This document shows positions 37,998-59,627 of a DNA stretch of 64,000 nucleotides, piece after piece. Each line of letters begins with the position of its first letter. Position 1 is the stretch's first letter. The position numbers and the translations under genes were made by a program. Source of the DNA: Minisyncoccia bacterium. GTDB taxonomy: Bacteria > Patescibacteriota > Minisyncoccia > UBA6257 > 2-01-FULL-56-20. The notes below the pieces were generated by a model. That model was not told the DNA's origin, ran no database searches, and saw only the letters and a program-made list of their open reading frames with translations. The stretch lies in the NCBI GenBank assembly GCA_050008535.1, contig JBEKML010000001.1:194246-258245 (forward strand). Reading direction: 5' to 3'.

Positions 37998-38824
37998 AAG
38001 ATTTTTTTAAAAGATATCAGAGGAAATTGTACCGGCTTTTGGTGCTGCCCTTTGCGAACCGGCGCTATATCCGGCAGCCGGCGCTTTTTGAATCGATCGG
38101 TCCCGCGGACCCCGCAAAACTCTTTGTTGTGACCGTCGCCTTCAATGATCCGGATCTCATCGTGCTGCATCGCGCAGCGTTGCAGAAATATCTTCGCGAC
38201 CCGCACGAATATTTTGTGTTTGATAATTCGAGCAACGAAGGCAAGGCGGAGGAGCTTAAGGCCTGGTGCCTCGATCATAAGGTAAATTACGTGCGGCTCC
38301 CTTTCAACCGTTACCGGACGAATATCCCTTCGGCGTCCCATTCGTTCGCGCTGAATTGGATATACCGCAATTTCATCCTGCGGTTCAAGCCGGCCATCTT
38401 CGGCGTGTGGGACTGCGATCTTTACCCCACGCATCCTGTTACGATCCGCCCGTATCTTGTTGAGCGCGATACGTGGGGCATCATCCGGAAGCAGAGGCCG
38501 GTCTTTCATCCCTGGCAGTCCGGACTTCACGTGTGGATCGGCTTGGCGTTCTTCCGGCTTTCGAAGTTCGCGCGGCGGGCGCCGAACTTTATGCCGCGGT
38601 TCGGGGTTGATGTGAGCGGGCGGATAGAGCTTGATCCGAAGGTCGCGGCGGCCTTCCCCGACCGGCAATATTTGGACGACCTCCTGCCTACGGAGATCGC
38701 GCCCCGCGCGGAAGTGTGGCGGAACGAAAATTTCGTACACTTCGGCGGTTCCGCCGATTTTCCGCCGGGCTTGGAAATAAAGAAACGGTGGATGAGGGAT
38801 GCGTTGGGCATTTCAAAAAAATAA
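37994..38824 (+). CDS. GT-A-like glycosyltransferase (hypothetical)
   Basis: Contains 'LFVVTVAFNDPDLIVLHRAALQKYLRDPHEYFVFDNSSNEG'; an ATGA overlap joins it to the upstream gene. Confidence 0.35.
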   Translation: MKDFFKRYQRKLYRLLVLPFANRRYIRQPALFESIGPADPAKLFVVTVAFNDPDLIVLHRAALQKYLRDPHEYFVFDNSSNEGKAEELKAWCLDHKVNYVRLPFNRYRTNIPSASHSFALNWIYRNFILRFKPAIFGVWDCDLYPTHPVTIRPYLVERDTWGIIRKQRPVFHPWQSGLHVWIGLAFFRLSKFARRAPNFMPRFGVDVSGRIELDPKVAAAFPDRQYLDDLLPTEIAPRAEVWRNENFVHFGGSADFPPGLEIKKRWMRDALGISKK

Positions 38825-38838
38825 GGGTATTGTTATCA

Positions 38839-39417
38839 ATGATGCAGGAATACATCAAAGAATCCATCGCGCTTGAAGAGGCGCTTGCGAAGGACCAGCA
38901 GCTTGCTGCATTTTTCACGGGTGCCGTGGATGCGGTATGCCGTGCGATGCAGGCGGGCAACAAGGTTCTCATCGCGGGCAACGGGGGAAGCGCCGCCGAC
39001 ACCCAGCATTTCGCCGCGGAATTCGTTGGGAAATACAAAATGAAGCGTGCGGCATACCCCGCGATCGCGCTTACGACCGACACCTCGTTGCTCACCGCGT
39101 GGAGCAATGATGAAGGATTTGAGGGTGTTTTTGAACGTCAGGTTGAAGCGTTGGGAAGGGCGGGCGACGTATTTTTTGGCATTTCAACCAGCGGGAATTC
39201 AGAGAATATCATCCGGGCGATCAAGGCGGCGAAACAAAAAAAGATCGTCGCGGTCGCCCTGCTCGGCGGCGACGGCGGCAGGACAAAAGAAATGGCAGAT
39301 CTTGAATTCATCGTTCCCTCAAGGAACACGCCGCGCGTTCAGGAAATGCATACGTTAATTTTGCACAGTATTGCCGAGGAAGTGGAAAAGAGGATATCTG
39401 GCGCGGCAGGGAGATAG
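38839..39417 (+). CDS. gmhA: SIS-domain sedoheptulose-7-phosphate isomerase
   Basis: Contains 'KVLIAGNGGSAADTQHFAAEFVGKY'. Confidence 0.75.
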   Translation: MMQEYIKESIALEEALAKDQQLAAFFTGAVDAVCRAMQAGNKVLIAGNGGSAADTQHFAAEFVGKYKMKRAAYPAIALTTDTSLLTAWSNDEGFEGVFERQVEALGRAGDVFFGISTSGNSENIIRAIKAAKQKKIVAVALLGGDGGRTKEMADLEFIVPSRNTPRVQEMHTLILHSIAEEVEKRISGAAGR

Positions 39418-41060: not shown

Positions 41061-41092
41061 TCGCTCCAGTGTGGGACGCACAACACACAAGA

Positions 41093-42243: not shown

Positions 42244-42251
42244 CCAGTTTC

Positions 42252-42851: not shown

Positions 42852-43888
42852 AAAAAGTTTTGGTTACGGGAAACCAGGGGTACATTGGGTCAATTTTGAC
42901 CGAGTTGCTTCTGGCGCGCGGATACGATGTTGCGGGGTACGACGTGGGATATTATGGTGACTGCGACCTTGCTCCGGCGAAGCGGCCCGCGGCCCAGATA
43001 AAAAAAGACGTCCGGGATGTTGTTTCCGAAGACCTGCGCGGCATTCACGCCGTCATTCATCTTGCGGCGCTTTCAAACGATCCCTTGGGAGAGCTCAAGG
43101 CGGGGATCACCGAAGAAATTAACCTGAAAGCGACGGTGGATTTTGGGCGCTTGGCGAAAGAGGCCGGCGTGCAGCGCTTCGTGTATGTTTCTTCGCAGAG
43201 CATGTACGGCGTTGCGGATACGAGCCACGAGCTTGCGGAGGACGAAGCAGGGCCGTACGGCGTGACGGCCTATGCGCGCACCAAGTGGGATGCGGAGTGC
43301 GAACTTAAAAAACTGAACGACGCAAACTTCGCGGTGATCTGCATGCGGCCGTCCACGGTCTTTGGCGCGAGCCCGAACTTCCGGGCGGACATCGTTTTTA
43401 ATAATCTTGTAGGATCGGCCTACACGACCGGAAAAATAGAGATCAAAAGTGACGGGACGCCGTGGCGGCCCGTCGTGCACGTGCGCGACGTTTCGAACGC
43501 CTTCATTGCGGGACTTGAGGCGCCGCTGGAGCTCGTGGCAGGACAATCGTTCAACGTAGGCATTCCGAACGGGAATTATACCGTTCGCACATTGGCCGAA
43601 GCGGCGCAGCGCGCGGTGCCCGGGAGCACACTTGCCTTTACTGGCGAGCACGGCTCGGACTCTCGCACCTATCGCGTGAGCTTTCAAAAAATACTCACCG
43701 TGCTTAAGGATTTTTATAAGCCCGAGTGGGACCTGGATAGGGGCGGAAAAGAATTAATTGACTTTTTTAAAGAAATTCATTTTACTGAAGAGCAATTCAG
43801 AGGCCGCACCTGCAATCGTCTGAAGCAGATAAACAGCCTTTTGGAGCGCGGTGCTTTGGATCAGAACCTGCGATGGCTCAAACAATAA
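42848..43888 (+). CDS. NAD-dependent epimerase/dehydratase (SDR)
   Basis: Contains 'KVLVTGNQGYIGSILTELL' and a YxxxK motif. Confidence 0.75.
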   Translation: MKKVLVTGNQGYIGSILTELLLARGYDVAGYDVGYYGDCDLAPAKRPAAQIKKDVRDVVSEDLRGIHAVIHLAALSNDPLGELKAGITEEINLKATVDFGRLAKEAGVQRFVYVSSQSMYGVADTSHELAEDEAGPYGVTAYARTKWDAECELKKLNDANFAVICMRPSTVFGASPNFRADIVFNNLVGSAYTTGKIEIKSDGTPWRPVVHVRDVSNAFIAGLEAPLELVAGQSFNVGIPNGNYTVRTLAEAAQRAVPGSTLAFTGEHGSDSRTYRVSFQKILTVLKDFYKPEWDLDRGGKELIDFFKEIHFTEEQFRGRTCNRLKQINSLLERGALDQNLRWLKQ

Positions 43889-45078
43889 AACAAGCAGTTA
43901 TTCTTGCCGGAGGGAGGGGGACGCGGCTCCAGCCGCTCACGCTTACCCTGCCAAAACCCATGGCGCCGGTGAACGGCCGCCCCTTTTTGGAATACCAGAT
44001 CGAGCTCCTGCGTAAGAACGGCATCGAGGACATCGTGCTGCTTTTGGGGTATCTCCCAGAAAAGATAGTCGAGCATTTCGGCGACGGCAAAAAATTCGGC
44101 GTGCGCATCCGCCATTCGATTACCGACGTGGACGACGATACGGGCACGCGCCTCAAAAAAGCCGAGGCGCTCCTGGATGACCGCTTCCTTTTGATGTACA
44201 GCGATAATTATCTGCCGATCGAGCTTCGTAAAATGGTTGCGTTCCACGATGCCAAAGGGACGGCTGGAATGGTGACGGTCTATAACAATCGTGACGGCGG
44301 CGGGGAGTATGGCATAAAGAACAACGTAAAGGTGGAAGAAGGCGGGAGCGTCAGTTATTACGGCCCGGCGAGCGATGACCTGGCGCTGGCTAATGCCACA
44401 GATGTGGGATTTTTCATCATGCCGAAAATGGTCGTGCGGATGCTGCCGGACGAGAACTGCTCGTTCCAAAATACTGTCCTGCCAAAACTTGCGCGAGAAG
44501 GCCAATTGGTTGCCTACCGTACCGACCACCCGTATTATCCGATCACGTCGCTTGCTCATCTGCCCATTATTGAAAAGTTTTTGGAGCCGAAGAAAGTGAT
44601 CTTCCTGGACCGCGACGGCGTCATTAATAAAAAAGCCGCCGACGATGACTATGTGAAGCACTGGGGAGAATTCGAATTCGTTCCCGGAGCGGTGGAGGCC
44701 GTGAAACTTCTCACGGACGCGGGTTATCAGATTTATATTATCTCCAACCAGCGCGGGATTGCCCGTGGCCTGATGACTGAGAATGACCTTGCAGATATCC
44801 ATCGGCGGATGTTGGATGAACTTTCGCGTGCCGGCGGGCGTATCGCGGCGATCTATTATTGCCCCCACGGGAAGGAGGACAATTGTTTTTGCCGGAAGCC
44901 CAAGCCGGGAATGTTCTTTCGCGCCGCGCGGGAACACCATATTGATCTCACGAAAGCCGTGGCGATCGGCGACAGCGCAAGCGACCAAGCGGCCAGCGAG
45001 GCCGCAGGGTGCCGGACCATAATTGCCAAAGAAGGCGACCTCCTGAAAGTGATACAATCACTAATAAGAGAATTATGA
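43873..45078 (+). CDS. bifunctional fusion of D-glycero-alpha-D-manno-heptose-1-phosphate guanylyltransferase (HddC-like) and D,D-heptose-1,7-bisphosphate phosphatase (GmhB-like HAD)
   Basis: N-terminal 'VILAGGRGTRLQPLT' and C-terminal 'VIFLDRDGVINKK…YCPHGKEDNCFCRKPKPGM…AIGDSASD'. Confidence 0.75.
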   Translation: MAQTIKQAVILAGGRGTRLQPLTLTLPKPMAPVNGRPFLEYQIELLRKNGIEDIVLLLGYLPEKIVEHFGDGKKFGVRIRHSITDVDDDTGTRLKKAEALLDDRFLLMYSDNYLPIELRKMVAFHDAKGTAGMVTVYNNRDGGGEYGIKNNVKVEEGGSVSYYGPASDDLALANATDVGFFIMPKMVVRMLPDENCSFQNTVLPKLAREGQLVAYRTDHPYYPITSLAHLPIIEKFLEPKKVIFLDRDGVINKKAADDDYVKHWGEFEFVPGAVEAVKLLTDAGYQIYIISNQRGIARGLMTENDLADIHRRMLDELSRAGGRIAAIYYCPHGKEDNCFCRKPKPGMFFRAAREHHIDLTKAVAIGDSASDQAASEAAGCRTIIAKEGDLLKVIQSLIREL

Positions 45079-45926
45079 GAATTTTTGTTACGGGAGGGAC
45101 CGGTTTTGTAGGAAAGCATGTGGTTGCGGAACTACGGAAACGGGGCCATAAGCTCCTCATTCTTTCGCGCCAAAAAACAAAGAGCGGCCCGCGATCAACA
45201 TTTTTGCGCGGCGATCTTTCTTCCATAACGAAATGGCAGGGCAAACTTGCCCGCTTTAAACCGCAGGCCGCGATCCATATGGCATGGGAAGGGATCCCCG
45301 ATTACGGCCCGGAAATGAGTTTGAAAAATTTTTCCCAGGGTGTTGCCCTCATACGCGCCCTCGGCGAGGCAGGGTGTAAAAAGGTTGTTGCGGTAGGCAG
45401 CTGCTGGGAGTATGGAAGAGATTCAGGAAAGATCGGCGAAGATACCGATCCTCGGCCAACCAGCGCCTTTTCCGCAGCGAAGACCGCTCTGCACTGGCTG
45501 GGGAGAGAAACGGCGAAGGAATATGGCATGGAATTTGTTTGGGCGAGGATATTTTACGTCTACGGGCCGGGCCAGAAGGCTTCCTCGCTCATCCCGCATC
45601 TTATCGCGGACAAGCGCGTTGGCACTCTTCCTGTGGTAAAGAATCCGAACGGCGGCAATGATTTTGTGTATGTTGGCGACGTGGCCTGCGCGCTCCGCAT
45701 GCTTATTGAGAAAAAAACGCCGCACGGCATTTATAACATCGGTGCGGGACGCGTGACGGGCGTGCGCGAAGTGGCCCGCGCGGTGTACGGCAAGGACGTT
45801 ATCGCCCGGAAAGGGCTGGCGCGGGGATTTTATGCCGACATCGCGAGGATAAAAAAAGATGTTGGTTGGAAGCCAAGCGTTTCCATTACTGCCGGTGTCC
45901 GCGCGATGATGGATGTGCTATCATAA
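45075..45926 (+). CDS. NAD-dependent epimerase/dehydratase (SDR)
   Basis: Contains 'MRIFVTGGTGFVGKHV'. Confidence 0.7.
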   Translation: MRIFVTGGTGFVGKHVVAELRKRGHKLLILSRQKTKSGPRSTFLRGDLSSITKWQGKLARFKPQAAIHMAWEGIPDYGPEMSLKNFSQGVALIRALGEAGCKKVVAVGSCWEYGRDSGKIGEDTDPRPTSAFSAAKTALHWLGRETAKEYGMEFVWARIFYVYGPGQKASSLIPHLIADKRVGTLPVVKNPNGGNDFVYVGDVACALRMLIEKKTPHGIYNIGAGRVTGVREVARAVYGKDVIARKGLARGFYADIARIKKDVGWKPSVSITAGVRAMMDVLS

Positions 45927-45930
45927 CGCT

Positions 45931-46488
45931 ATGATTTTCCAAAAAACAAAGTTGGACGGTGTGTGGGTCGTCAAACTTGAGCCGCGGGTGGACGAGCGCG
46001 GCTTCTTCGTGCGCAACTTTGCAAAAGAGGAATTCGCCAAGAACGGCATTGACTACAATATCGTCCACATCAACCGCTCACTCAGCAAAATAAAAGGGAC
46101 CACCCGGGGTCTTCATTATCAGCAGGCGCCGAAAGCGGAGGATAAGATGCTGCAATGTTTGCGCGGCAGGATCTACTGGGTCGTCGTTGACCTGCGGAAA
46201 AATTCCAAGACATACGGGCAGTGGGTATCGGTGGAACTGACTCCCGAAAAGATGAACATGGTCATCTGCCCGAAAGGATGCGCGAACGGCATCCAGACGC
46301 TTGAGGACGATTGCGAGCTGCAGTATTTCGTCACTGAATATTATTCGCCGGAGCACGAGCGCGGTTTGCGGTGGAACGACCCCTATTTCGGCATTACGTG
46401 GCCCCTTGCCACGCCTGCGGTCATTTCCGAAAAAGACTCAAATTGGCCGCTCGTAGAGAAGGAGAATCTTCCGACGGTGACACTATGA
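45931..46488 (+). CDS. RmlC-like cupin sugar-nucleotide 3,5-epimerase
   Basis: dTDP-4-dehydrorhamnose 3,5-epimerase fold motifs. Confidence 0.75.
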   Translation: MIFQKTKLDGVWVVKLEPRVDERGFFVRNFAKEEFAKNGIDYNIVHINRSLSKIKGTTRGLHYQQAPKAEDKMLQCLRGRIYWVVVDLRKNSKTYGQWVSVELTPEKMNMVICPKGCANGIQTLEDDCELQYFVTEYYSPEHERGLRWNDPYFGITWPLATPAVISEKDSNWPLVEKENLPTVTL

Positions 46489-46493
46489 GTTTT

Positions 46494-47231
46494 TTATTTT
46501 TTTGAAGTATTTTTACAAACAACGATCAGTGTTTGATGTGTGCTTGGCCCCTCGGGAGCGACGGGAGCCATGGCGTGCAATTTCGTCATAACCGCGCTTG
46601 TGGCCCCGCGAGGCAATATTTTTTTCAGGAATCCCAACCGCCGTTTTAGGGTTCTTATCATCGGATGACGATAGAACGTTTGCCCATAAACGTTTTCGAT
46701 TGAAAAAAATTCGGCAAGGGAGGCGACAAGTTCCTTCTTGGTCAGTTCCTTTACGTGATTCGTATTCTTTATAGATCCGGGTTTTTCTGAAATGATTCTG
46801 TCGGGAGTGCTGATGATGAGCGTCCCATTCGGCTTCAGTACGCGCTTCAGCTCCGAAAGCATGGTGCCCTGGTTTATTACGTGCTCAATGGTTTCAAAAG
46901 AGACCGCTACGTCAAACTGCCCGCTTTTGAGCGGAATGGGCTTTTCGAAATCAACTTGCACGAATTCAACTTCGGGATAGTGCGCCTTCCCCCACGAAAG
47001 TGCGTGCTCGCTGCAATCCACTCCTACGACCCTCGCCGCTTTTTCCCGGAGGAGGTGCGATCCATAGCCGCTGCCACAAGCTCCATCAAGAACAACATCG
47101 GTCGGTTTTATAAAATCAAGCGCGAACGCATACCGCATTAGATGATCTTCAAAAAGTCCCTCTCCGCCGCCAACATCATAGCTTCTCCCCGTGGTTATTT
47201 TGGGATCAAGTTCTTTTATTGTCTTTTCCAT
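46494..47231 (-). CDS. class I SAM-dependent methyltransferase
   Basis: Contains 'VLDGACGSGYGSHLL'. Confidence 0.7.
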   Translation of the reverse strand: MEKTIKELDPKITTGRSYDVGGGEGLFEDHLMRYAFALDFIKPTDVVLDGACGSGYGSHLLREKAARVVGVDCSEHALSWGKAHYPEVEFVQVDFEKPIPLKSGQFDVAVSFETIEHVINQGTMLSELKRVLKPNGTLIISTPDRIISEKPGSIKNTNHVKELTKKELVASLAEFFSIENVYGQTFYRHPMIRTLKRRLGFLKKILPRGATSAVMTKLHAMAPVAPEGPSTHQTLIVVCKNTSKK

Positions 47232-47312
47232 ATCTTCTCTATTGTATTAGCGAACATGGGCGAAGACAAGACCATTATTGAAACGTGGCAGTAAAGAAAT
47301 TCTTGTGATATC

Positions 47313-47825
47313 ATGGGCGTGATGGAGGTTACAAAGACAAAACTTGAGGGCGTGCTTCTTGTGAAACCCGATATTTACAAGGATTTTCGCGGGAGCAATG
47401 TGAGCATCTACAACGAAGCGGACTACGCGGCGCAGGGCATCCCGGTCCATTTTGTTGAGGATAAAATTTCCGTTTCACTCAAGAACGTCCTGCGCGGCAT
47501 CCACGGGGATCCGGGCACATGGAAGCTCATTACCTGCTTGGAGGGAAGTATCTATTTGGTCGTCGTGAATTGCGACGAGAGATCAAAAGAATTCGGGAAA
47601 TGGGAATCGTTCACGCTCGTGGATGCGGATCGGCTACAGGTGCTCGTCCCTCCGATGTACGGCAATGCGCATTTGGTCTTGAGCGACCATGCAGTGTTCC
47701 ATTATAAGTGGTCGGAATATTACCATCCGGAGAAACAGTTCCGGTACTATTACAACGATCCGCGATTCAATATCCAGTGGCCGGTCAAGGACCCTATCCT
47801 TTCGCCCCGTGACGCGCAACCATAA
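47313..47825 (+). CDS. second RmlC-like cupin epimerase
   Basis: Contains 'KLEGVLLVKPDIYKDFRGSNVSIY…RGIHGD'. Confidence 0.75.
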   Translation: MGVMEVTKTKLEGVLLVKPDIYKDFRGSNVSIYNEADYAAQGIPVHFVEDKISVSLKNVLRGIHGDPGTWKLITCLEGSIYLVVVNCDERSKEFGKWESFTLVDADRLQVLVPPMYGNAHLVLSDHAVFHYKWSEYYHPEKQFRYYYNDPRFNIQWPVKDPILSPRDAQP

Positions 47826-47836: not shown

Positions 47837-49009
47837 ATGAAACCAATAAAATATTATCTTGCGGAGGATACCATCGATAAAAAGGACATCGACGCGTTGG
47901 TCGACTGGCTCAAAAAATATCCGCGCCTTACGAAAGGTCCGCTCACGCCGCAATTTGAAAAGAAATGGAGCGATTGGCTTGGCCGGAAATACTCGGTCTT
48001 CAATAACTCCGGTTCTTCCGCCAATTTGCTCATGTTCTACGCACTCCTGCTCTCGGGGCGGCTGAAGAATAAAAAGGTCATCGTGCCGAGCGTCGGCTGG
48101 GTGACCACGATTGCGCCCGCGATCCAGCTCGGTTTTGAGCCGATCATGTGCGAGGCGGACAAAGATACCTTCGGGCTTGACCTTGACCACCTTGAAAAGC
48201 TTCTTAAAGAACACAATCCGGGTACGGTGATCATGGTGCAGGTGCTCGGCGTGCCGCACAAAATGGACGAGCTTATAAAGCTTAAAGAAAAATACGGGTT
48301 CATCCTCCTTGAGGATGCATGCGCGGCGATGGGGGCTTCATATAAAGGCAAGCACGTGGGCACGTTCGGCGACATGTCCAGTTTTTCCTTCTACTTTGGG
48401 CACCAGATTTCGACCATTGAGGGTGGCGCAGTTTCCACAGACGACAAGCAGTTCAACGATCTACTTCTTATGATCCGGAGCCATGGCTGGGGAAAGGACC
48501 TTGATCCCGCCACGCACCGCGCGCTTTTGGACAAGTACCAGATTGACGATTTCCACGCGCCATTCGTTTTTTATGAGCCGGGTTTCAATCTGCGCGCGAC
48601 CGACCTGCAGGCGTTCATCGGTATGCGGCAGGTGGACAAGATGGAATGGCTTATCGAACGGCGCGGCGCAAACCACGCGCTCTACACGCAGCTCTTGGGC
48701 CATCGCTTCGTGAGCCAGAAACCTCCGGCGGGGTCGGTTATCTGCAGCATCCACTTCGGGATGCTCGCGAAAGATGGCGCGGAACGGAAAAAGATCGTCC
48801 AGGCGCTGGAGGAGAACGGCATAGAAACAAGGATCTTTTCCGCAGGGAATCTGGGGCTGCATCCCTTCTGGTTTAATCGGTACGGAAAGTTTTCCGCGCC
48901 GATGGCGGACCGTATCCATTACAACGGACTTTTCCTGCCGAACCATCCGTCGCTCACGGAAGACGATATTCGGTTCATTGCCGACGTTGTTTTGAAGAGC
49001 GTGGCATGA
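47837..49009 (+). CDS. DegT/DnrJ/EryC1-family PLP-dependent sugar aminotransferase
   Basis: Length and motifs fit the family. Confidence 0.85.
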   Translation: MKPIKYYLAEDTIDKKDIDALVDWLKKYPRLTKGPLTPQFEKKWSDWLGRKYSVFNNSGSSANLLMFYALLLSGRLKNKKVIVPSVGWVTTIAPAIQLGFEPIMCEADKDTFGLDLDHLEKLLKEHNPGTVIMVQVLGVPHKMDELIKLKEKYGFILLEDACAAMGASYKGKHVGTFGDMSSFSFYFGHQISTIEGGAVSTDDKQFNDLLLMIRSHGWGKDLDPATHRALLDKYQIDDFHAPFVFYEPGFNLRATDLQAFIGMRQVDKMEWLIERRGANHALYTQLLGHRFVSQKPPAGSVICSIHFGMLAKDGAERKKIVQALEENGIETRIFSAGNLGLHPFWFNRYGKFSAPMADRIHYNGLFLPNHPSLTEDDIRFIADVVLKSVA

Positions 49010-50121: not shown

Positions 50122-51078
50122 TTGCCATCCATGACTAAAGCGAAAAAAGTGCTTGTGACGGGCGGTGCCGGCTATATCGGCTCCGTTCTGGTGCCGGAAC
50201 TTTTGCGCGCGGGCCACGAAGTGACGGTGATCGATAATTTCATGTACGGCCAGCATTCATTGCTTGATGTGTGCCATTTAAACGTGCTTACGATTGTCCG
50301 CGGCGACGCGCGTGACGAGAAATTGGTGAAGAAACATCTGGAGGGCAAGGATTTTATCATCCCCTTGGCCTGTATCGTCGGTGCGCCCGCGTGCGATGCC
50401 GATCCCATTGCCGCTACGAGCATCAACCGCGATGCGGTGCTCATGCTTTTGAAATTGCGGACCCCGGAGCAAAAGATCATATTCCCAAACACGAACAGCG
50501 GCTACGGCCGGATGCAGGAGGGCGTTGCGTATTGCGACGAGACGAGCCCGCTTGAGCCGGTGTCGCTGTACGGCAAGCTCAAAGTGGAGACCGAAAAGGC
50601 GCTTCTTGCCGCCGGCAACGCGATCACGCTCCGCCTTGCTACGGTTTTCGGCGCAAGTCCCCGCATGCGTATGGACCTTTTGGTGAACGATTTCGTGTAT
50701 CGCGCGCTCGTTGACCGCACCGCCGTGCTTTTTGAACCGCACTTCAAGCGCAATTATATCCACGTGCGCGACGTTGCGCGGGCATTCATGCACGCGATGG
50801 ACCATTTCGATGCAATGAAGAACGAAACATATAACGTCGGTCTCTCCGACGCCAACTTGAGCAAGAGCGAGCTCTGTGCGGAGATAAAAAAGCACGTGCC
50901 GCACTTCGTGTACGTGGAATCCGCGATTGGCGAAGATCCCGACAAGCGTAACTATATAGTAAGCAACGCGAAGATAGAGGGGACGGGATTCAGGCCGCAG
51001 GTATCGCTCGCGGACGGCATTGCCGAATTGGTGAAGGCTTACCAGGTCATCCGGAAGAACGAATTCACAAATCTATAG
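50122..51078 (+). CDS. NAD-dependent epimerase/dehydratase (SDR)
   Basis: Contains 'KVLVTGGAGYIGSVLVPEL'. Confidence 0.75.
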   Translation: MPSMTKAKKVLVTGGAGYIGSVLVPELLRAGHEVTVIDNFMYGQHSLLDVCHLNVLTIVRGDARDEKLVKKHLEGKDFIIPLACIVGAPACDADPIAATSINRDAVLMLLKLRTPEQKIIFPNTNSGYGRMQEGVAYCDETSPLEPVSLYGKLKVETEKALLAAGNAITLRLATVFGASPRMRMDLLVNDFVYRALVDRTAVLFEPHFKRNYIHVRDVARAFMHAMDHFDAMKNETYNVGLSDANLSKSELCAEIKKHVPHFVYVESAIGEDPDKRNYIVSNAKIEGTGFRPQVSLADGIAELVKAYQVIRKNEFTNL

Positions 51079-52215
51079 TTTGACCATTGACGCCGCCACT
51101 GCGCGGACCACTTCCGTGTCAAATGCGCTCGGAAGAACGTGGTCGGCGTCGGGATGCTTCACGCAGCCGGCGAGCGCCTCGGCGGCGCGGAGGAACATCG
51201 TGCTCGTGAACTGCTTGACCCCGTGGTCCAGGGCTCCGCGGAAAATGCCGGGGAATGCGAGGACATTATTGATCTGATTCGGAAAATCGGAACGGCCGGT
51301 GGCCACAATGAAGGCGCCTGCCCGCTTTGCGGCGTCCGGCATGATTTCGGGAATTGGATTTGCAAGGGCAAGAACGATCGGCCTTTCGTGCATTGAGCGG
51401 ACCATCTCTTCCGAAAGAATACCGCCCTTACTTACCCCAATAAAGACATCGGCGTCCACGAGGATCTCTGCGAGGCCGCCCGCCGCGCCGCGCGGGTTCG
51501 TGATGCGCGCCAGTTCTTTTTTCTCCGGCGTAAGGTCTGCCCTTTTTTGGTGGATAGCCCCCTTGCTATCGGAGAGAACAATGTCTTTTATGCCGTATTC
51601 CAAGAGCAGCCGTGCGACCGCGGTCCCGGCGGCGCCTGCACCGCTCATCACAATGCGCGCCTCTTCCTTCGGAATAGCGCGCAATTTCAGTGCATTTATG
51701 AGAGCCGCGAGAACAACCACCGAGGTGCCGTGCTGGTCATCGTGCATCACAGGAATGGAAAGTTCCGCGCGAAGGCGCCGTTCAACTTCAAAGCAGCGCG
51801 GCGCAGAGATGTCTTCCAGGTTGATGCCGCCAAAGACCGGCGCGATGCGCTTTGTGGTTTCAATGATCTCCTCCACGTCCTGCGTGGCAAGGCAGATCGG
51901 AAAGGCATCAATATCCGCGAATTTTTTGAAGAGTATCGCTTTACCTTCCATAACGGGGATGGCGGCTTCCGCGCCGAGGTTTCCAAGCCCCAGGATCGCG
52001 GAGCCGTCGGAGACCACGGCGATCGTATTGTGTTTCAGCGTGTATTCGCGTGCGGACTCCGGATTCTTGCCGATTTCAACACTTACCTGCGCGACGCCCG
52101 GCGTGTACGCAAGAGAAAGATCGTCCTTGTTCTCGATGGGCACCTTGCTTCGCACCTCCAGCTTCCCATGATGCTTTTTGTGCAAAGCAAGCGCGTCTTC
52201 GTACACCTTATCCAT
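51073..52215 (-). CDS. NAD(P)-dependent malic enzyme
   Basis: Contains 'LSLAYTPGVA…'; the start is assigned to the internal Met. Confidence 0.85.
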   Translation of the reverse strand: MDKVYEDALALHKKHHGKLEVRSKVPIENKDDLSLAYTPGVAQVSVEIGKNPESAREYTLKHNTIAVVSDGSAILGLGNLGAEAAIPVMEGKAILFKKFADIDAFPICLATQDVEEIIETTKRIAPVFGGINLEDISAPRCFEVERRLRAELSIPVMHDDQHGTSVVVLAALINALKLRAIPKEEARIVMSGAGAAGTAVARLLLEYGIKDIVLSDSKGAIHQKRADLTPEKKELARITNPRGAAGGLAEILVDADVFIGVSKGGILSEEMVRSMHERPIVLALANPIPEIMPDAAKRAGAFIVATGRSDFPNQINNVLAFPGIFRGALDHGVKQFTSTMFLRAAEALAGCVKHPDADHVLPSAFDTEVVRAVAASMVKL

Positions 52216-52300
52216 GCAGTAATCATACCTTTGCGACCAGGAAGAATAAAGCGCGGCAGAGCTTGAAAAAATAAACCACATCAAGTATCCTTGTTCTGTT

Positions 52301-52912
52301 ATGACCAAAGAAGAGCTGATTGCGTTTGAGGCGGAGATAGCCGATATTTATTGCGCCGGGAAGATCAAGGCGCCTATCCACCTTTCCGACGGGAACGAGG
52401 AACCGCTTATTGATATATTCAAAAAGATCAAAAGCGACGATTGGGTCTTTTCTACGTGGAGAAGCCATTATCACGCACTCCTGCACGGCATCCCGAGGGA
52501 GCTTGTAAAGGAAGAAATTTTAAAAGGGAACAGCATTACGCTTTGCTTCCCGGAACACCGGTTTTTCACGTCGGCGATCGTGGGCGGCATTGTCCCCATC
52601 GCTGTCGGCACGGCGCTTGCAATCAAAAGAAAAAAGGAAAACCAGCATGTATGGTGTTTTGTCGGCGACATGACCGCCGAAGCGGGGATCTTTTACGAGA
52701 ACGTGAAGTATGCCGATAATTTCGGGCTGCCGATCACGTTTGTGATCGAAGACAACGATGTAAGCGTGGGAACGCCGACGGACACGGTATGGGGCTATGA
52801 CAAAGCGAAACAAAAGCCGGATTACCTTTCATGGAACCGGAGCAATATTATTTATTACCACTATAAGAAAAAATGGCCGCATGTCGGGGCGGGCAAATGG
52901 GTGACTTTTTAA
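52301..52912 (+). CDS. minimal TPP-binding E1-alpha-like subunit
   Basis: Contains 'FVGDMTAEAGIFYENVKYADNFGLPITFVIEDNDVSVGT' (GDG…N TPP motif). Confidence 0.6.
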   Translation: MTKEELIAFEAEIADIYCAGKIKAPIHLSDGNEEPLIDIFKKIKSDDWVFSTWRSHYHALLHGIPRELVKEEILKGNSITLCFPEHRFFTSAIVGGIVPIAVGTALAIKRKKENQHVWCFVGDMTAEAGIFYENVKYADNFGLPITFVIEDNDVSVGTPTDTVWGYDKAKQKPDYLSWNRSNIIYYHYKKKWPHVGAGKWVTF

Positions 52913-53449
52913 ATGAAATATTCCGAAGAGATAAAAAGAGCAATGGAGCTTCTCGCCGCGCACCCGCAGACGATCTTTATCGGCCAGAGCGTGGCATATC
53001 CGGGCAATGCGATCTACACGCTGCTCAAAGATGTTCCCGCCGAGAAGAAAATCGAGATGCCGGTATTTGAGGAAACGCAGATGGGCATTTCCATCGGGTT
53101 GGCGCTCGAGGGATACATTCCCGTGAGCGTTTTCCCGCGTTTCAATTTCCTTATTATTGCCCTGAACCAGCTCATCAATCATTTGGATAAGATCCCGCAC
53201 ATTTCCCAGGGGAAACTCAGGCCGAAAGTGATCATAAAGACGATGGTAGGGAGCGTCCGGCCGCTCGATCCGGGGATCCAGCACAGAAGCAACTTCACGG
53301 AGGCATTCCGGAGGTTCGGTGCCGATGTCGTCATTGAAGACCTCACGGAGCCCGAGATGATCTTTCCTGCTTATGAGCAGGCGCTTACCCGCAACGACGG
53401 AAAGTCGACCATTCTCGTCGAGTACGGCGATTACTATAACGAAAAATAA
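52913..53449 (+). CDS. minimal transketolase-like pyrimidine-binding (E1-beta-like) subunit
   Basis: Contains 'IFIGQSVAYPGNAIYTLL… EETQMGISIGLALEG'; its start directly abuts the alpha subunit's stop. Confidence 0.55.
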   Translation: MKYSEEIKRAMELLAAHPQTIFIGQSVAYPGNAIYTLLKDVPAEKKIEMPVFEETQMGISIGLALEGYIPVSVFPRFNFLIIALNQLINHLDKIPHISQGKLRPKVIIKTMVGSVRPLDPGIQHRSNFTEAFRRFGADVVIEDLTEPEMIFPAYEQALTRNDGKSTILVEYGDYYNEK

Positions 53450-53452: not shown

Positions 53453-54457
53453 ATGGTTATCAGCAGAACTCCATTCCGTATATCGTTTTTCGGCGGAGGC
53501 ACCGACTACCCGGTGTGGTACCGGGAGCATGGCGGCGCCGTCCTTTCCGCGTCCATAAACAAATATTGTTACCTGACCTGCCGCTATCTGCCGGCGTTCT
53601 TTGACCACACCACAAGAGTGGTATGGTCGAAAGTTGAATTGGTGAAAAATTTTGAAGAGATCCAACATCCGTCGGCGCGCGAGACGATAAAATTCTTGGG
53701 CATCAAGGACGGCCTTGAAATCCACCATGACGCCGACCTGCCGGCCCGCTCGGGCCTTGGCTCAAGTTCCGCTTTCACGGTGGGGCTTTTGAATTCGTTG
53801 AATACCTTGCTTGGAAGGAGTTCTAACCGCAGGCAGTTGGCACTTGAGGCGATCCATATAGAACAAGAGAAGATAAAAGAGAACGTTGGTTCGCAGGACC
53901 AGGCCGCCGCCGCGTTTGGCGGATTGAACAAAATTACCTTTGGCGGCCCGGATCATTTTCGGATGGAACCAGTCGTCCTTAAGAAAGACAGCCTCCGGTC
54001 TTTTGAAGACCACATTATGCTGTTCTTCACCGGGCTTTCCCGGAACGCTTCGGAGGTCGCTGCGGAGCAGATCAGGCTCACCCCGCAGAAAGAAAAGGAG
54101 CTTACCGCCATGCGCAGTATGGTTGATACCGCCGCGGATTTTCTTAAACAAGGCAACTTCATCGATTTTGGCAGGCTGCTTCATGAAACGTGGCAGATCA
54201 AGCGTACGCTTTCGTCTCAGATCACCAATAGTTCCATAGATGAAATTTATGAGGCGGGGATGCGGGTCGGCGCCCTTGGGGGCAAGCTTTTGGGGGCGGG
54301 CGGCGGGGGATTTATCATGTTCTTTGTACGGCCGGAAGACCAGCCGCGCGTGCGGGAAACGTTGAAAAACCTTCTTTGCGTGCCCGTGAAGTTCGATCAC
54401 CGAGGCAGCCAGATCATCTTTAACAGCAACGGCGGGCATCCCGTGCGCTTGTCCTAG
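53453..54457 (+). CDS. second GHMP sugar kinase
   Basis: Contains 'ISRTPFRISFFGGGTDYPVWY'. Confidence 0.75.
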   Translation: MVISRTPFRISFFGGGTDYPVWYREHGGAVLSASINKYCYLTCRYLPAFFDHTTRVVWSKVELVKNFEEIQHPSARETIKFLGIKDGLEIHHDADLPARSGLGSSSAFTVGLLNSLNTLLGRSSNRRQLALEAIHIEQEKIKENVGSQDQAAAAFGGLNKITFGGPDHFRMEPVVLKKDSLRSFEDHIMLFFTGLSRNASEVAAEQIRLTPQKEKELTAMRSMVDTAADFLKQGNFIDFGRLLHETWQIKRTLSSQITNSSIDEIYEAGMRVGALGGKLLGAGGGGFIMFFVRPEDQPRVRETLKNLLCVPVKFDHRGSQIIFNSNGGHPVRLS

Positions 54458-55395
54458 TGCTCATGCCGAAGATCTCCATCCTCGTGCCCGTCAGGAACAG
54501 CGGAAAGTATCTTTCAGGAACGCTTGACACCGTGGTCAATCAAACGTTCACGGATTGGGAAGTGGTGATCAAGGACGGCATGTCCACCGATGACACGCTC
54601 GCGGTCGCGAAGCGGTATGCCGCGGCGCATCCGAACATCAAGGTCATTTCCGGGCCTGACGAAGGGTCCAACGATGCGGTCGTCCGGGCGTTCCGCGAAT
54701 CACACGGGGAATACGTCCTCATGCTGTGCGCGGGAGACGGCTACCTCACCGACCGCTGGCTCGAGATGTGCATTAGGGCGCTTGATGAGGATCCCGAGAT
54801 CTCGCTCGTGTGGGGCATTCCCTTTGATATGAGTGAAGAAGGAAAACTCCTGGGACCGCATTTCGCTTACGGGAATTTCCTCGGAAAGACGCCGGGGAAC
54901 ATGGGGCTTCTCAAGGAGCTCATAAAGCGGGTGGCTCACCCGTCCTCCTTTCTGCGTCTCGTGCGGCGCGCGAATTTACAGACCGTGCGATCGGTCGGCG
55001 GGATGCTCAAAAAGCGCGAAGTGCCGCAAAAACAGGATTGGTTCTGGTACTGGCTTGATACGGGCGTGCAATTCCCCGATGGCAATACCTGCATGAGCCG
55101 GCGCCTTTTTGAAGAACTGGTGGCGCCGCGCATGGGCGGGCCGTGGAAGCCGGGGACATGGACGAATTTCTATTTCAGCTTCAATACCCAGGGATATTTG
55201 GCGCGTTGTTTTCCTATTCCTGCAAGTTTCGCGAGGCTGACCAGGGGGAGGTTGAGCGATCAGCTGGTCGCGCGCGCCAATGTCGAACAAAGCGAATTTT
55301 TTGAAAAGCTCGCGGAATTCCGCAAGAAAATCAAAGCCCATCCCGAAAAAATGGTCTTCCGCGCGCGTTCCGGCGAACCGATCGCGGTAAAATAG
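54457..55395 (+). CDS. glycosyltransferase family 2
   Basis: Contains 'ISILVPVRNSGKYLSGTLDTVVNQTFTDWEVVIKDGMSTDDT'. Confidence 0.7.
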   Translation: MLMPKISILVPVRNSGKYLSGTLDTVVNQTFTDWEVVIKDGMSTDDTLAVAKRYAAAHPNIKVISGPDEGSNDAVVRAFRESHGEYVLMLCAGDGYLTDRWLEMCIRALDEDPEISLVWGIPFDMSEEGKLLGPHFAYGNFLGKTPGNMGLLKELIKRVAHPSSFLRLVRRANLQTVRSVGGMLKKREVPQKQDWFWYWLDTGVQFPDGNTCMSRRLFEELVAPRMGGPWKPGTWTNFYFSFNTQGYLARCFPIPASFARLTRGRLSDQLVARANVEQSEFFEKLAEFRKKIKAHPEKMVFRARSGEPIAVK

Positions 55396-56940: not shown

Positions 56941-57708
56941 ATGGAACAGCATAAAAAGAAAATAACGCAGGCATTCATTTTGGGAGCGGGACTCGGGACC
57001 CGCCTGCGGCCGCTCACCGACACGATGCCGAAAGTAATGGTCCCTATTAACAAAGAAGGGAAGCCGCTCCTTGAGCACAGCATAGAATGGTTGCGTGATC
57101 ACGGCATCACCGATTTCGTCATCAATCTTCATTGTCTGCCCGATGTGATCACGTCCCATTTCGGCGACGGCAAGAAATGGGGCGTGCATATTGCCTACAG
57201 CGACGAAACGGATCAATTATTTGAAACGGGCGGAGCATTTTGGAAGGCAGCGCCGCTTCTTCAAGACCAATTTCTTTTCATGTACGGCGATGAACTTCAT
57301 TTTATTGATCCGCATCCGCTTATTGAATCGCATTTTGAGCGGGATGATGCGCTCGCGACCATTGTGCTCAAGACCTCCGATATCCCATCGAACGGCGAGA
57401 TAGCCGATTTCGATGCTGCTACCCGGCGCATCACCCGGTGGCAGACGCGGCCACATGCCGTTACGGAGTATACGGCCACTAGCATGCTGAACGCCGGCTT
57501 ATACGCTTTTTCCAAGAAGATTTTGAACTACATTCCGCCTGCCACTCCCATCAAATTGGACGGGGAGGTCATCCCCCGGGCGTTTGCGGCCCACGAGACC
57601 TTGTACGCCTTTCCGACCAACGAATCCATTCTTGACATCGGCACGCCGGAGAAGTACGAAATCGCGAAACAATATTATCGCGAGTGCACGGCAGAGAAAG
57701 CGATTTGA
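56941..57708 (+). CDS. sugar-phosphate nucleotidyltransferase
   Basis: Contains 'AFILGAGLGTRLRPLTDTMPKVMVPI'. Confidence 0.8.
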   Translation: MEQHKKKITQAFILGAGLGTRLRPLTDTMPKVMVPINKEGKPLLEHSIEWLRDHGITDFVINLHCLPDVITSHFGDGKKWGVHIAYSDETDQLFETGGAFWKAAPLLQDQFLFMYGDELHFIDPHPLIESHFERDDALATIVLKTSDIPSNGEIADFDAATRRITRWQTRPHAVTEYTATSMLNAGLYAFSKKILNYIPPATPIKLDGEVIPRAFAAHETLYAFPTNESILDIGTPEKYEIAKQYYRECTAEKAI

Positions 57709-57789: not shown

Positions 57790-58605
57790 GTGGAATACAC
57801 ACAGTTCACGGAAGCCCTAAGGAGCTTATTCTTTTGGCTCATGCCGAACTATCTCGGTAGGGCTCATGAAGGGATAGGCGACAAGATTAAAAAAGACGGG
57901 ACTCCGGTCGGGAGTTTGGACCATCTGGCACTCGCGGAACTCCGGAGGGTCGTCCTCGAGTTCTTCCCTGATGACCGCACGGTCGGCGAGGAAGACGGAG
58001 CAAGAGCCGCTTACAGCGCCGAAGGCCAGCCCGAGTGGAACCTCGACGGACTTGACGGGACAGGGAACCGCCGTATGGGCACGAATTCCTACGGAGGAGC
58101 TCTTTCGCGGCGACGGGGGGACGAGGTCCTCTACGCCGCCATCTTCAGGCCTGTCGATCAGGCGCTCCGCGGAAACGGGTTTTTCTACGCGGAGCGAAAC
58201 AAAGGTGCCTGGCAGTGGTGTGAGAAGCACGGGATCTATCACCGTATCCACACCGCTCGCGAAAACGAACTTGAACGGCCCGTGGTGATGCTCGAGGGAT
58301 CGTCCAAGAAACTCTTCAGGCCCCCAGTGTCCGAACTGGGGAAAGTCATCACGGCGAGACCGAGCTTTTCGGCCTGCGTGGCCACTACCACTGTCGCGCA
58401 GGGTCGCGCAAGCGCCCTTGTCGCAGTGGACAATGCGCCGTGGGACAATCTCCCTGCGATTCTTTTCGTGAAGGAAGCCGGCGGGATCGTTACCGATTGG
58501 AACGGCGATCCGCTGACATTCCAGACCTGCGGCAACATCATCGCGGCGGGGAACGCGGCCGACCACCGCGCGATACTCCAGATTTTGAAAGGAGCAACAC
58601 CTTGA
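57790..58605 (+). CDS. inositol monophosphatase-family protein (paralogue of 33708-34493)
   Basis: Contains 'EWNLDGLDGTGN' and 'VGEEDG'; a GTG start with an SD 'GAGAGGAGAAGG' upstream. Confidence 0.65.
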   Translation: MEYTQFTEALRSLFFWLMPNYLGRAHEGIGDKIKKDGTPVGSLDHLALAELRRVVLEFFPDDRTVGEEDGARAAYSAEGQPEWNLDGLDGTGNRRMGTNSYGGALSRRRGDEVLYAAIFRPVDQALRGNGFFYAERNKGAWQWCEKHGIYHRIHTARENELERPVVMLEGSSKKLFRPPVSELGKVITARPSFSACVATTTVAQGRASALVAVDNAPWDNLPAILFVKEAGGIVTDWNGDPLTFQTCGNIIAAGNAADHRAILQILKGATP

Positions 58606-59627
58606 CCGACGAAACGCGCATAGAGCTGATCCACTGGCCGGGAGGTTTTATCACCCGCGCTGGAGGAACGCGAACAGGCGTGAAGCTCAATCGACCATGG
58701 CAAGTGCCACTGGTCCAGAACGAGTTCCCTCCGGAGCTCTTTGACCGGATCGCACAAGTCCTTCCGCCCGACTTCTTTGAAACGGACTCGGCAACGTCGC
58801 AGTTTGGCGGACGCGAAGCGATTCGAGGGCTTTTCGCCGCGATTGCGACTGCGGTCGGGGAGGCAAAGAAGTCCCTGCCGCCGTGCGCCCTCTGCAAGAA
58901 GTACGTAACCGCGAGCCCAGTAACGCTGGCGGAAACCGTGCCGCCCGGATGGAAGGTGGTCCGGAACGATTTCACGCCCCACTATTTCCACATCCTCGTC
59001 ATCCCGGCGATGTGTTGGGAAGAAGAAGTTCTGCGCCGCCTCGGAGGGAGGGAGAAGATCGAGGAGATGCTTCGAGCGGCAATGAGTGTCGTTTGGAGCG
59101 GCGAGGCGGCAGATATGAATTTCTGGCTCGGCGTCCACGTTGGGTATCTCGCAGGCCAGAACTTCCCTCATCCGCACATGCACGAACTCCAAACCTCGGC
59201 GAACCCGCCGCACGTAACGCGGTCATTGTGGGAGGAACTGCGGAACCTCCAAACCGACGAACGTGTTGTTGCGGAAACTCCCAAGTTCGTCGTTTCTGCG
59301 GGAGGCCTGCGTGCAGGCCAACTGCTCATCATGCCAAAGAGCTTCATGCCGATGGCCAGTCACGACTTGATCGCCGAGCTCGCGGAGCTCCTCGACAAGA
59401 TCGTCACGCTCTGCGGGAACAAGTTCCGAAGCATTCAGGGCCTGCCCCCGGACTTTCATCTCTCGCTCGGCTTCTGCAACGGCAACTTCCAGGGCGGAGA
59501 ATACGTCCCGCGGCTCAACAATCGGGGGTTCACGGAGAGCTACCCTCTGACGTTCGGCCTTGCGGACGCCATCCCATTCATCCTGCCTTGGCCGCACTGG
59601 GAAACGGCCGCGTATCTGAAGAGCTAG
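58602..59627 (+). CDS. HIT-superfamily (GalT/Apa2-like, two half-sites) nucleotidyltransferase/phosphorylase
   Basis: Contains 'FPHPHMHEL' (the HxHxH triad) plus an N-terminal half-site 'TPHYFHILVIP'; a TTG start overlaps the upstream stop. Confidence 0.5.
   Translation: MTDETRIELIHWPGGFITRAGGTRTGVKLNRPWQVPLVQNEFPPELFDRIAQVLPPDFFETDSATSQFGGREAIRGLFAAIATAVGEAKKSLPPCALCKKYVTASPVTLAETVPPGWKVVRNDFTPHYFHILVIPAMCWEEEVLRRLGGREKIEEMLRAAMSVVWSGEAADMNFWLGVHVGYLAGQNFPHPHMHELQTSANPPHVTRSLWEELRNLQTDERVVAETPKFVVSAGGLRAGQLLIMPKSFMPMASHDLIAELAELLDKIVTLCGNKFRSIQGLPPDFHLSLGFCNGNFQGGEYVPRLNNRGFTESYPLTFGLADAIPFILPWPHWETAAYLKS

Follow-up and report, generated by a model that had tools for sequence, protein, structure and literature searches.

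A minimal two-chain thiamine diphosphate enzyme of the E1 lineage and its predicted role as a carboligase in a bacterial heptose pathway

Introduction

What does a thiamine diphosphate (ThDP) enzyme of about 380 residues do within a cluster of sugar-modification genes? The question is raised by a stretch of 64,000 nucleotides (nt) from a Minisyncoccia bacterium (GenBank assembly GCA_050008535.1, contig JBEKML010000001.1, positions 194,246 to 258,245), here called the window and numbered from its first letter. Two adjacent open reading frames (ORFs) at 52,301 to 53,449 of the window resemble the alpha and the beta subunit of the E1 component of 2-oxo-acid dehydrogenases, yet are far shorter than either. 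A preliminary description of these ORFs suggested that they may add a carbon branch to a sugar, as the enzyme YerE does. We put at about an even chance, from gene context and analogy, that the alpha/beta pair is a minimal E1-lineage carboligase, which would attach a 2-oxo-acid-derived unit (probably of two carbons, C2) to C4 of a GDP-(3-deoxy-)4-keto-heptose.

The pair retains the catalytic core of E1

The coordinates and lengths of the ORFs are as first described, and the TAA stop codon of alpha is followed at once by the ATG of beta. Gene callers place the beta start in the same contig at Met11 (168 aa). The start at 52913 is backed by an invariant Y3, a near-invariant E6 and the position of the junction in natural fusions, which supports the abutting arrangement of the two genes.

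Profile comparisons place both chains in the E1 lineage, while covering only part of each E1 subunit. Pfam E1_dh matches alpha (3.7e-17) over profile positions 9-171 of 300 only, and the NCBIfam model for the alpha subunit of pyruvate dehydrogenase (PDH) E1 gives 102 bits against a cut-off of 394. Beta matches Transket_pyr over positions 15-167 of 174 at E 4e-5, below the gathering score, and is covered in the NCBIfam PDH E1-beta model by the N-terminal 138 of 327 positions (44 bits, cut-off 321). A Transketolase_C domain is absent from beta in the Pfam scan and likewise from all of the 120 best beta homologues listed. A TPP_enzyme_C match to the pair is sub-threshold (3.7e-4, below the gathering score), with no TPP_enzyme_N or M domain, and the NCBIfam transketolase model reaches 25 bits against a cut-off of 488. 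Pyruvate/branched-chain E1 models are consistently best (TIGR03182 at 2.8e-29, versus 4e-6 for transketolase). The pair consists of the half of E1-alpha that binds the diphosphate of the cofactor (PP domain) and the E1-beta domain that binds its aminopyrimidine (PYR domain), and of nothing else.

The same picture emerges from the predicted structures. AlphaFold models both chains with high predicted local distance difference test values (pLDDT 92.4 for alpha and 88.7 for beta). The best fold match of alpha is human PDH E1-alpha (TM-score 0.80 query-normalised, 0.46 target-normalised), and that of beta is the Thermus thermophilus E1-beta (TM 0.85 and 0.49, respectively; root-mean-square deviation 2.4; E 1.5e-10). 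Both models are thus covered whole by the E1-alpha and E1-beta matches, which themselves are covered by less than half. These target-normalised scores and the profile coverage bear out the earlier statement that beta has only a PYR domain and that the pair is far shorter than E1 or transketolase. A split transketolase stands at rank 48 of the beta fold matches, and no minimal E1-type form was found among solved structures by fold and PDB sequence comparison.

The residues expected of a ThDP enzyme are in place, as an alignment of 82 alpha and 78 beta sequences indicates. In alpha, H27, H56, G122, M124, E150, D151 and N152 are invariant, and R54 and H194 are each kept in 81 of 82 homologues. 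Alignments to PDB entries equate human E1-alpha His63, Arg90, His92, Asp167 and Asn196 (derived numbering) with H27, R54, H56, D123 and N152 of alpha. The cofactor motif is not the GDG...N first reported, which is found in human E1-alpha and aligns with it, but G122-D123-M124-x27-N152 (GDMTAEAG...VIEDN). Across the 82 homologues it takes the form G-[D/E]-M-x27-N: at position 123, the Mg-binding acidic residue, 49 sequences have Asp and 33 have Glu, and N152 follows at a spacing of 27 in every case. Glu is the consensus at this position in the Burkholderiales alignment. The invariant Met124 stands where other ThDP enzymes carry Gly. Alpha ends in a conserved, family-specific tail, P-H194-x-G-x-G...F203; the E1-alpha profile alignments end at residue 163, short of this PHxGxG motif with its H194. 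In beta, Y3, E53, R76, H90, D92, K93, Q123 and H124 are invariant, and E53, the catalytic glutamate that activates the cofactor, corresponds in the alignment to Glu59 of human E1-beta. The residues for cofactor binding and catalysis are therefore conserved throughout, and the alpha/beta pair is, with little doubt, a functional ThDP enzyme.

A large family of intact, paired genes

The two genes belong to a large family. A search with alpha returned 7,628 proteins (E<=0.001). Almost every one of the 120 best has 190-230 aa, and the 120 best for beta have 167-199 aa, with typical sizes of about 195-210 aa and 168-195 aa, respectively. An exhaustive profile search yielded about 190 clusters (50% identity) at E<=1e-30, and a second profile at least 7,928 clusters (90% identity) at E<=1e-40. 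Relatives are encoded in 322 of 185,579 species genomes, with carriers among Nitrospira, Burkholderiales (Massilia, Piscinibacter, Herbaspirillum), Pelagibacteraceae, Verrucomicrobiota, Cyanobacteria, Chlamydiae, Chloroflexi, candidate phyla radiation (CPR) bacteria and DPANN archaea; some carriers, such as Herbaspirillum sp. DW155 and Massilia sp. LXY-6, are in culture. In IMG/VR, viral contigs that encode a relative of alpha number at least 547, and many of them are 50-350 kb long with about 31% GC. Automatic labels on these homologues read "thiamine pyrophosphate-dependent enzyme", "PDH E1 alpha" or "unknown function". A characterised member was not found in PDB, NCBIfam, PHROGs or the literature searched, and a literature search on heptose and thiamine together with radical SAM, GHMP or capsule genes found nothing on the gene cassette that is described below.

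The pairing of the two genes is obligate. Of the 81 non-redundant loci, 77 have beta next to alpha, as do all 45 bacterial loci with full flanks (at least 8 kb on both sides), mostly with a gap of -16 to +25 nt. In nature, alpha and beta are also joined, in that order, in single chains of about 400 aa (P0256, P0327, P0359), and PHROGs holds a fused family of unknown function, phrog_34187, in which alpha matches positions 7-199 and beta 237-405. In one alpha homologue (P0258) an intein is inserted exactly at, or immediately before, the G-D-M motif. Two further homologues have unusual architectures: in P0311 an N-terminal APH-family kinase domain is fused to an alpha with the canonical GDG motif, and P0257 has an N-terminal extension containing LAGLIDADG. 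Sizes kept across phyla, natural fusions and invariant residues indicate that the ORFs are not gene debris. A pseudogene or gene-fragment origin, named at the outset as the finding that would overturn a sugar-branching role, is rejected on these grounds, to which the intein at the motif adds. The other finding so named, a lack of the cofactor-binding residues, is excluded by their conservation.

A conserved cassette in bacteria and viruses

Neighbouring genes were counted in the 45 bacterial loci, by tblastn, and in 66 viral loci with full flanks. The bacterial pairs are accompanied by a GHMP kinase (42/45), an extended short-chain dehydrogenase/reductase (SDR; 40/45), an NTP-transferase (39/45), a DegT-family gene (38/45), a B12-binding radical S-adenosylmethionine (SAM) enzyme (36/45), a SIS isomerase (16/45), which is a good GmhA match where present, and a family 2 glycosyltransferase (GT2) like that at 54457 of the window (14/45). 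The co-inheritance with SDR and DegT-family genes that was looked for from the start is evident from these counts. In the commonest order the genes read GT2, radical SAM, kinase, alpha, beta, DegT, NTP-transferase and SDR, and close variants of this order occur. At the Herbaspirillum locus, GmhA, an HddA-like kinase, GmhB and an HddC-like transferase flank the pair, and a radical SAM enzyme resembling HpnJ and a reductase resembling Fcl are encoded there as well. The pair is thus co-inherited with heptose genes as well as with enzymes related to sugar-nucleotide C4-dehydrogenases and 3-dehydratases.

The viral loci, with a median GC content of 31%, are differently composed. Beta is found in 54/66 and the SDR in 55/66, followed by the DegT-family gene (30/66), the radical SAM enzyme (17/66), the GHMP kinase (6/66), the SIS isomerase (1/66) and the NTP-transferase (0/66). 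Viral loci thus keep SDR, alpha and beta without the supply genes, which indicates that this invariant unit acts on a pre-existing sugar nucleotide.

Two individual loci deserve mention. One phage-like contig (L087), with ClpP, a homing-endonuclease-like gene and many small ORFs, reads SDR, radical SAM, alpha, beta, DegT and an RmlC-like gene, and then phosphoribosyltransferase (PRTase), PNP_UDP and PfkB kinase genes. Another locus (L086), with an alpha 82% identical to that of the window, has two ThDP pairs in one sugar cluster, at 3991-5783 and 10001-11157: one is of mid size, with an E1-alpha of 296 aa and an E1-beta of 301 aa that has a Transketolase_C domain, and the other is minimal (205 and 168 aa). 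No GHMP kinase was found near either of them.

Predicted partners in the window

The corresponding genes of the window are collected in Table 1.

Table 1. The alpha/beta pair and its predicted partner genes, by position in the window
Feature	Position	Strand	Size, best match or remark
GmhA (sedoheptulose 7-phosphate isomerase)	38716..39417	+	TIGR00441 1.2e-61, 207 bits vs cut-off 209; first heptose-supply step
HddC-like nucleotidyltransferase / GmhB (heptose-1,7-bisphosphate phosphatase) fusion	43873..45078	+	GmhB 1.6e-51, residues 240-388; nucleotidyltransferase 6-230
DegT-family pyridoxal phosphate (PLP) enzyme, predicted ColD-type sugar-nucleotide 3-dehydratase	47837..49009	+	His for catalytic Lys
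Extended SDR, predicted sugar-nucleotide C4-dehydrogenase	50122..51078	+	PDB 6vo6/6vo8, 55.8% identity over 312 aa, E 2.7e-109
Malic-enzyme gene (malate to pyruvate)	51073..52308	minus	between SDR and alpha
Alpha subunit ORF	52301..52912	+	203 aa, ATG start; PP (diphosphate-binding) domain only
Beta subunit ORF	52913..53449	+	178 aa, ATG start; PYR (aminopyrimidine-binding) domain only
GHMP kinase, HddA-like (heptose 7-phosphate anomeric kinase type)	53453..54457	+	NCBIfam HddA 1.1e-42, below cut-off
GT2 glycosyltransferase	54457..55395	+	Pfam Glycos_transf_2
Sugar-1-phosphate nucleotidyltransferase	56941..57708	+	Pfam NTP_transferase; NCBIfam HddC 4.7e-19

The SDR is orthologous to the cassette SDRs (56% median identity) and closer still to those of near relatives (72-90%). 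Read from the sequence, it has a TNSGYG motif and does not have the Asp-Glu pair of 4,6-dehydratases; the depositors of PDB 6vo6/6vo8 named that protein "putative sugar-nucleotide epimerase/dehydratase". The gene at 47837 had been taken for an aminotransferase and is predicted instead to be a ColD-type 3-dehydratase. It reads SFSFYFGHQISTIEGG, with a His (SFSFYFGHQ motif) at the position of the Schiff-base Lys, and 105 of 113 DegT-family genes in bacterial and viral loci share this replacement (SFYYAHHMSTIEGG). The closest solved relatives of the DegT genes are ColD/WbdK (GDP-4-keto-6-deoxymannose 3-dehydratase; E 6e-52 and 8.6e-56); for the window gene these are ColD/WbdK 2gms at E 8.6e-56, followed by the CDP-sugar 3-dehydrase E1 3bb8, and its best NCBIfam match is RfbH. 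The idea that a carboligase step is followed by transamination of the new acetyl group was dropped, since the DegT gene has His for Lys and matches ColD.

The pair was first described as lying between a GHMP kinase and SDR/aminotransferase genes. The kinase does follow directly downstream of beta and is an orthologue of the cassette kinase (54% median identity); on the other side, however, the malic-enzyme gene intervenes. This gene overlaps the SDR stop codon by 6 nt, and its start lies about 85 bp (from a conserved MDKVY start) or about 20 bp (from the start chosen by gene callers) from that of alpha. Two metagenome contigs from the same organism (L168, L169) show this arrangement too. The relative L008 likewise has a malic enzyme (72% identical) within its cluster, there located downstream of GT2. 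Malic enzyme could supply pyruvate, the presumed donor.

Further partners can be assigned with graded strength. The GT2 gene at 54457, with a homologue at the same position in the closest relatives (L006, L008), is a candidate transferase for the product. The nucleotidyltransferase at 56941 matches the HddC-like enzyme of the cassette weakly (27% identity) and is the probable activation step. A radical SAM gene like that of the cassette was not found in the window. Upstream, at 38716-47825, lies a second set of genes for the tailoring of heptose nucleotides. It comprises GmhA, a kinase of the HddA type (at 41215) that shares only 35% identity with that of the cassette, a further SIS gene, an SDR, the fusion of HddC and GmhB, one more SDR, two cupins resembling RmlC and, on the minus strand, a methyltransferase. 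GmhA, this kinase and the fusion give the window a heptose supply of its own, and more than one modified heptose is therefore a probable output of the cluster.

Proposed function and alternatives

The pair is best viewed as an alpha2-beta2-type ThDP enzyme of the E1/transketolase lineage that has been cut to its catalytic core. The PP domain of alpha would hold the diphosphate and Mg, and the PYR glutamate of beta would activate the cofactor. The parts by which a dehydrogenase E1 is linked to a lipoyl/E2 complex have all been lost, so that the ThDP carbanion must be released or passed to a carbonyl. E2 and E3 genes are neither among the recurrent neighbour families of the 81 loci nor found in the annotated region of the window (about 27.8-64 kb), and the pair cannot belong to a lipoyl-dependent complex.

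In the proposed pathway, the 6vo6-like SDR would oxidise C4 of the sugar nucleotide to give a 4-keto acceptor, and the ColD-like PLP enzyme would remove the C3 hydroxyl, yielding a 3-deoxy-4-keto sugar. Alpha/beta would decarboxylate a 2-oxo acid, most likely pyruvate, and add the acyl-anion equivalent to the C4 carbonyl. The product would be a 4-C-acyl (acetyl) branched heptose with a nine-carbon skeleton, which the neighbouring glycosyltransferases would transfer after tailoring. Precedent for the first steps comes from Campylobacter jejuni, where Cj1427 re-oxidises its tightly bound NADH with 2-oxoglutarate and, together with the C3-dehydratase of that species, yields GDP-3-deoxy-4-keto-heptose in vitro, in work for which GDP-heptose and both enzymes were produced or purified (PMC10680097). 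Action of alpha/beta on a 4-keto sugar nucleotide made by the SDR is likely; that the branch is a C2 unit from pyruvate placed at C4 is a plausible but more tentative part of the proposal. The substrate is most likely a GDP-heptose derivative and not a dTDP- or GDP-hexose. The YerE-like branching initially suggested thus finds support in the co-inherited partners; the activity, like the acceptor, donor, regiochemistry and order of steps, is something we infer from context and analogy.

Several observations weigh against this proposal. In its functional part it leans on gene context and analogy, and donor and acceptor are not readable from sequence. Alpha is without the E1-alpha segment that bears a second catalytic His (His263 in human E1p), for which the C-terminal His194 is no more than a candidate substitute. 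That the solved SDR relative 6vo6 is C. jejuni Cj1427, the GDP-heptose C4-dehydrogenase, is a presumption, which the depositors' name for the protein fits. Within the window, the oppositely oriented malic-enzyme gene separates the SDR from the pair, and the 3-dehydratase shares no more than 32% identity with the copy that the cassette carries in other lineages. Among the other loci, about one quarter have no 3-dehydratase and some have no kinase (L004, L086), so the acceptor may vary by lineage, and the Fcl-like reductase of some loci could instead consume the 4-keto group.

The closest alternatives keep the sugar and change the chemistry. On the same 4-keto heptose nucleotide, alpha/beta might perform a transketolase-like ketol transfer or cleavage, by which the side chain would be shortened or extended, or draw on a donor other than pyruvate; hydroxypyruvate, or 2-oxoglutarate from the ColD-type reaction, would give a longer or functionalised branch. 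Such a donor is conceivable given that relatives of YerE accept C4-C8 2-oxo acids (PMC9306805). ColD-type dehydratases yield 2-oxoglutarate and Cj1427 consumes it, so that 2-oxo acids besides pyruvate are available; moreover, the fold and sequence of the pair sit between E1, 1-deoxy-D-xylulose-5-phosphate synthase (DXS) and transketolase. The best matches are nevertheless always to pyruvate/branched-chain E1, with TIGR03182 far ahead of transketolase (2.8e-29 and 4e-6), and we know of no precedent for bond cleavage at C4 of a pyranose-bound sugar nucleotide. This change of chemistry or donor appears rather unlikely. Dispensing with ligation altogether, the pair could be a plain 2-oxo-acid decarboxylase that acts on a sugar-borne alpha-keto acid, or on a small acid or aldehyde tied to cofactor recycling by the ping-pong SDR, whose closest characterised relative requires a 2-oxo acid as co-substrate. 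AzcB/AzcC, minimal two-subunit ThDP decarboxylases, are among the fold matches, ComDE is another enzyme of this kind, and both the window and L008 have within the cluster a malic enzyme, which forms pyruvate. Yet malic enzyme occurs in only 1 of the 81 other loci, no oxidase able to make a sugar alpha-keto acid recurs among the neighbour families of the cassette, and the pair is of the E1 lineage, not that of ComDE and the decarboxylases (TM 0.85 versus 0.61); we regard simple decarboxylation as improbable.

Two explanations depart further from the carboligase proposal. The position of the GHMP kinase directly after beta, in the window and in many loci, and the recurrence of SIS and NTP-transferase genes would suit a transketolase-like enzyme that supplies a ketose phosphate (heptulose or octulose) before activation, to be followed by the SIS isomerase, the GHMP kinase and nucleotidylation, for which the lincomycin octose pathway (LmbR/N/P/K/O) is a model. 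With the GmhA-like SIS, GmhB and HddC-like genes, however, a normal GDP-heptose route is already complete and has no need of a further ketose supplier, and the viral loci hold SDR, alpha and beta with the kinase, the SIS isomerase and the NTP-transferase in just 6, 1 and 0 of 66 cases, which makes a supply role very improbable. That the pair represents remnants of a disrupted E1 or transketolase gene, or a housekeeping pyruvate or acetoin dehydrogenase E1, is hardly credible, even if homologues have been auto-annotated as 'pyruvate dehydrogenase E1 component alpha subunit'. Remnants would not be expected to have the same sizes across phyla and viruses, with invariant catalytic residues, fusions and a conserved C-terminal tail, and a housekeeping E1 is at odds with the bit scores (102 against 394, 44 against 321), the missing Transketolase_C domain and the lack of E2/E3 neighbours.

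Implications for heptose glycobiology

If the carboligase proposal holds, the full cassette with its HpnJ/BchE-like B12-radical SAM enzyme might even be a pathway to caryose-type carbocyclic C9 sugars (4,8-cyclo-3,9-dideoxy-nonose), a speculative extension that we hold to be unlikely. The heptose would give C1-C7 and pyruvate C8-C9, with alpha/beta making the C4-C8 bond. The 3-deoxy position would be due to the dehydratase, the 9-deoxy position to the methyl group of pyruvate and the C7-C8 ring closure to the radical SAM enzyme; the window, without the latter, would stop at an open-chain 4-C-acetyl or 4-C-hydroxyethyl heptose. The biosynthesis of caryose was described as unknown in a 2022 review (PMC9092360), and a caryose producer is not among the 120 best homologues listed, few of which carry names. 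Were this extension correct, hundreds of phages would carry the SDR and a fused alpha-beta to rewrite the heptose glycans of their hosts.

ThDP-dependent formation of a C-C bond on a sugar nucleotide is a known kind of reaction; what is new in the proposal is that a minimal E1-type scaffold would perform it within a heptose pathway. The family is very large and unassayed, and has an E1-lineage enzyme of about 380 aa in two chains, or in one fused chain in phages. As a carboligase, it would be the smallest E1-type scaffold that performs acyloin chemistry, which is of interest for biocatalysis, and it would add a branch point to heptose glycobiology. It also points to C9 sugars, branched or carbocyclic, that have so far been overlooked in Nitrospira, Burkholderiales, Pelagibacter and CPR bacteria as well as in the phages of these groups.

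Other features of the window

Glycan genes are found from 29368 onward, so that the sugar cluster spans roughly 29-64 kb. The segment at 29368-37997 encodes a Wzy_C O-antigen ligase/polymerase-like protein, a GDP-mannose 4,6-dehydratase and, on the minus strand, an aldo-keto reductase. Its other products are an IMPase-family protein, an SDR, a member of the fucosyltransferase family GT11 and an FkbM methyltransferase. Between an IMPase-like and a nucleotidyltransferase gene, at 58602-59627, lies a conserved ORF of 341 aa whose HPHMH motif is reminiscent of HIT/GalT-type nucleotidyl enzymes; it has no Pfam or NCBIfam match, and its copies in L168 and L169 have no Pfam match. Outside of the sugar cluster, a class I aminoacyl-tRNA synthetase of 1,229 aa (Ile/Leu/Val/Met type; 15186-18875) has a histidine-phosphatase (His_Phos_1) domain inserted at residues 555-723, which splits the match to the catalytic domain. 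A tmRNA gene is present at 11104-11413 (tag peptide DNSKVAAPAFAYA) and a tRNA-Leu(CAG) gene at 21897-21981.

Comparison with known systems

The closest relatives in sequence and fold are the E1 components of dehydrogenases (PDH, branched-chain 2-oxo-acid dehydrogenase (BCKDH) and acetoin dehydrogenase), with which the pair shares the ThDP/Mg ligands and the activating Glu. Unlike E1-alpha, which measures about 320-400 aa, alpha is without the C-terminal half that carries regulatory and catalytic loops. Beta is likewise without the C-terminal domain that docks to E2, no E2/E3 partner accompanies the pair, and the scores stay below the equivalog cut-offs. In its design, with one PYR chain and one PP chain of about 165-190 aa each, the pair resembles ComD/ComE, AzcB/AzcC and the split phosphonopyruvate decarboxylases. 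These belong, however, to the decarboxylase/pyruvate oxidase (POX) lineage, and AzcB/C reach query-normalised TM-scores of 0.60-0.63 at E about 1e-5, compared with 0.85 for E1-beta; enzymes of the ComDE/AzcBC type decarboxylate small acids and have no link to sugar nucleotides.

With regard to the pathway, the capsular heptose route of C. jejuni (Cj1427, the HS:5 C3-dehydratase, Cj1430/Cj1428) has similar partners, including a supply of the HddA/HddC/GmhA/GmhB type. The C. jejuni pathways end with epimerases and a C4-reductase, and their description makes no mention of thiamine (PMC10680097).

The predicted logic is shared with YerE, ErwE and MyGE of yersiniose-type lipopolysaccharide (LPS) sugars: a 4-keto 3-deoxy sugar nucleotide is formed, and an acyl group is then placed at C4. 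In keeping with this logic, genes for a predicted C4-dehydrogenase and a ColD-type 3-dehydratase are inherited along with the pair. YerE itself is a single chain, an acetolactate-synthase-like flavoprotein of about 560-600 aa with TPP_enzyme_N/M/C domains. The pair, in contrast, has two chains (203 and 178 aa) of the E1/transketolase lineage, and its predicted substrate is a GDP-heptose derivative and not a CDP-3,6-dideoxyhexose. YerE adds a pyruvate-derived C2 unit to CDP-3,6-dideoxy-4-keto-glucose, and its relatives use longer 2-oxo acids (PMC9306805).

The nearest parallel in gene content is found in antibiotic biosynthesis, where AviB1/AviB2 (avilamycin) and Pau11/Pau12 (paulomycin) are E1-alpha/beta-like pairs proposed to make pyruvate-derived C2 sugar branches, and where knockout of pau11 abolishes paulomycin production (PMC4425429, PMC4753412). 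Here, too, adjacent E1-alpha-like and E1-beta-like genes lie within a sugar pathway. Pau11 (325 aa) and Pau12 (345 aa) are full length, whereas the window pair is about 40% shorter and its beta is without the C-terminal domain; the mid-size E1-like pair of L086 is 28% and 22% identical to the window proteins. AviB and Pau belong to actinomycete secondary metabolism and presumably act once the sugar has been attached. The use of E1-like pairs for sugar branching had thus been proposed before (PMC4425429), and the build of the alpha/beta pair, called unusual in the preliminary description, is so in its minimal size and its separate lineage.

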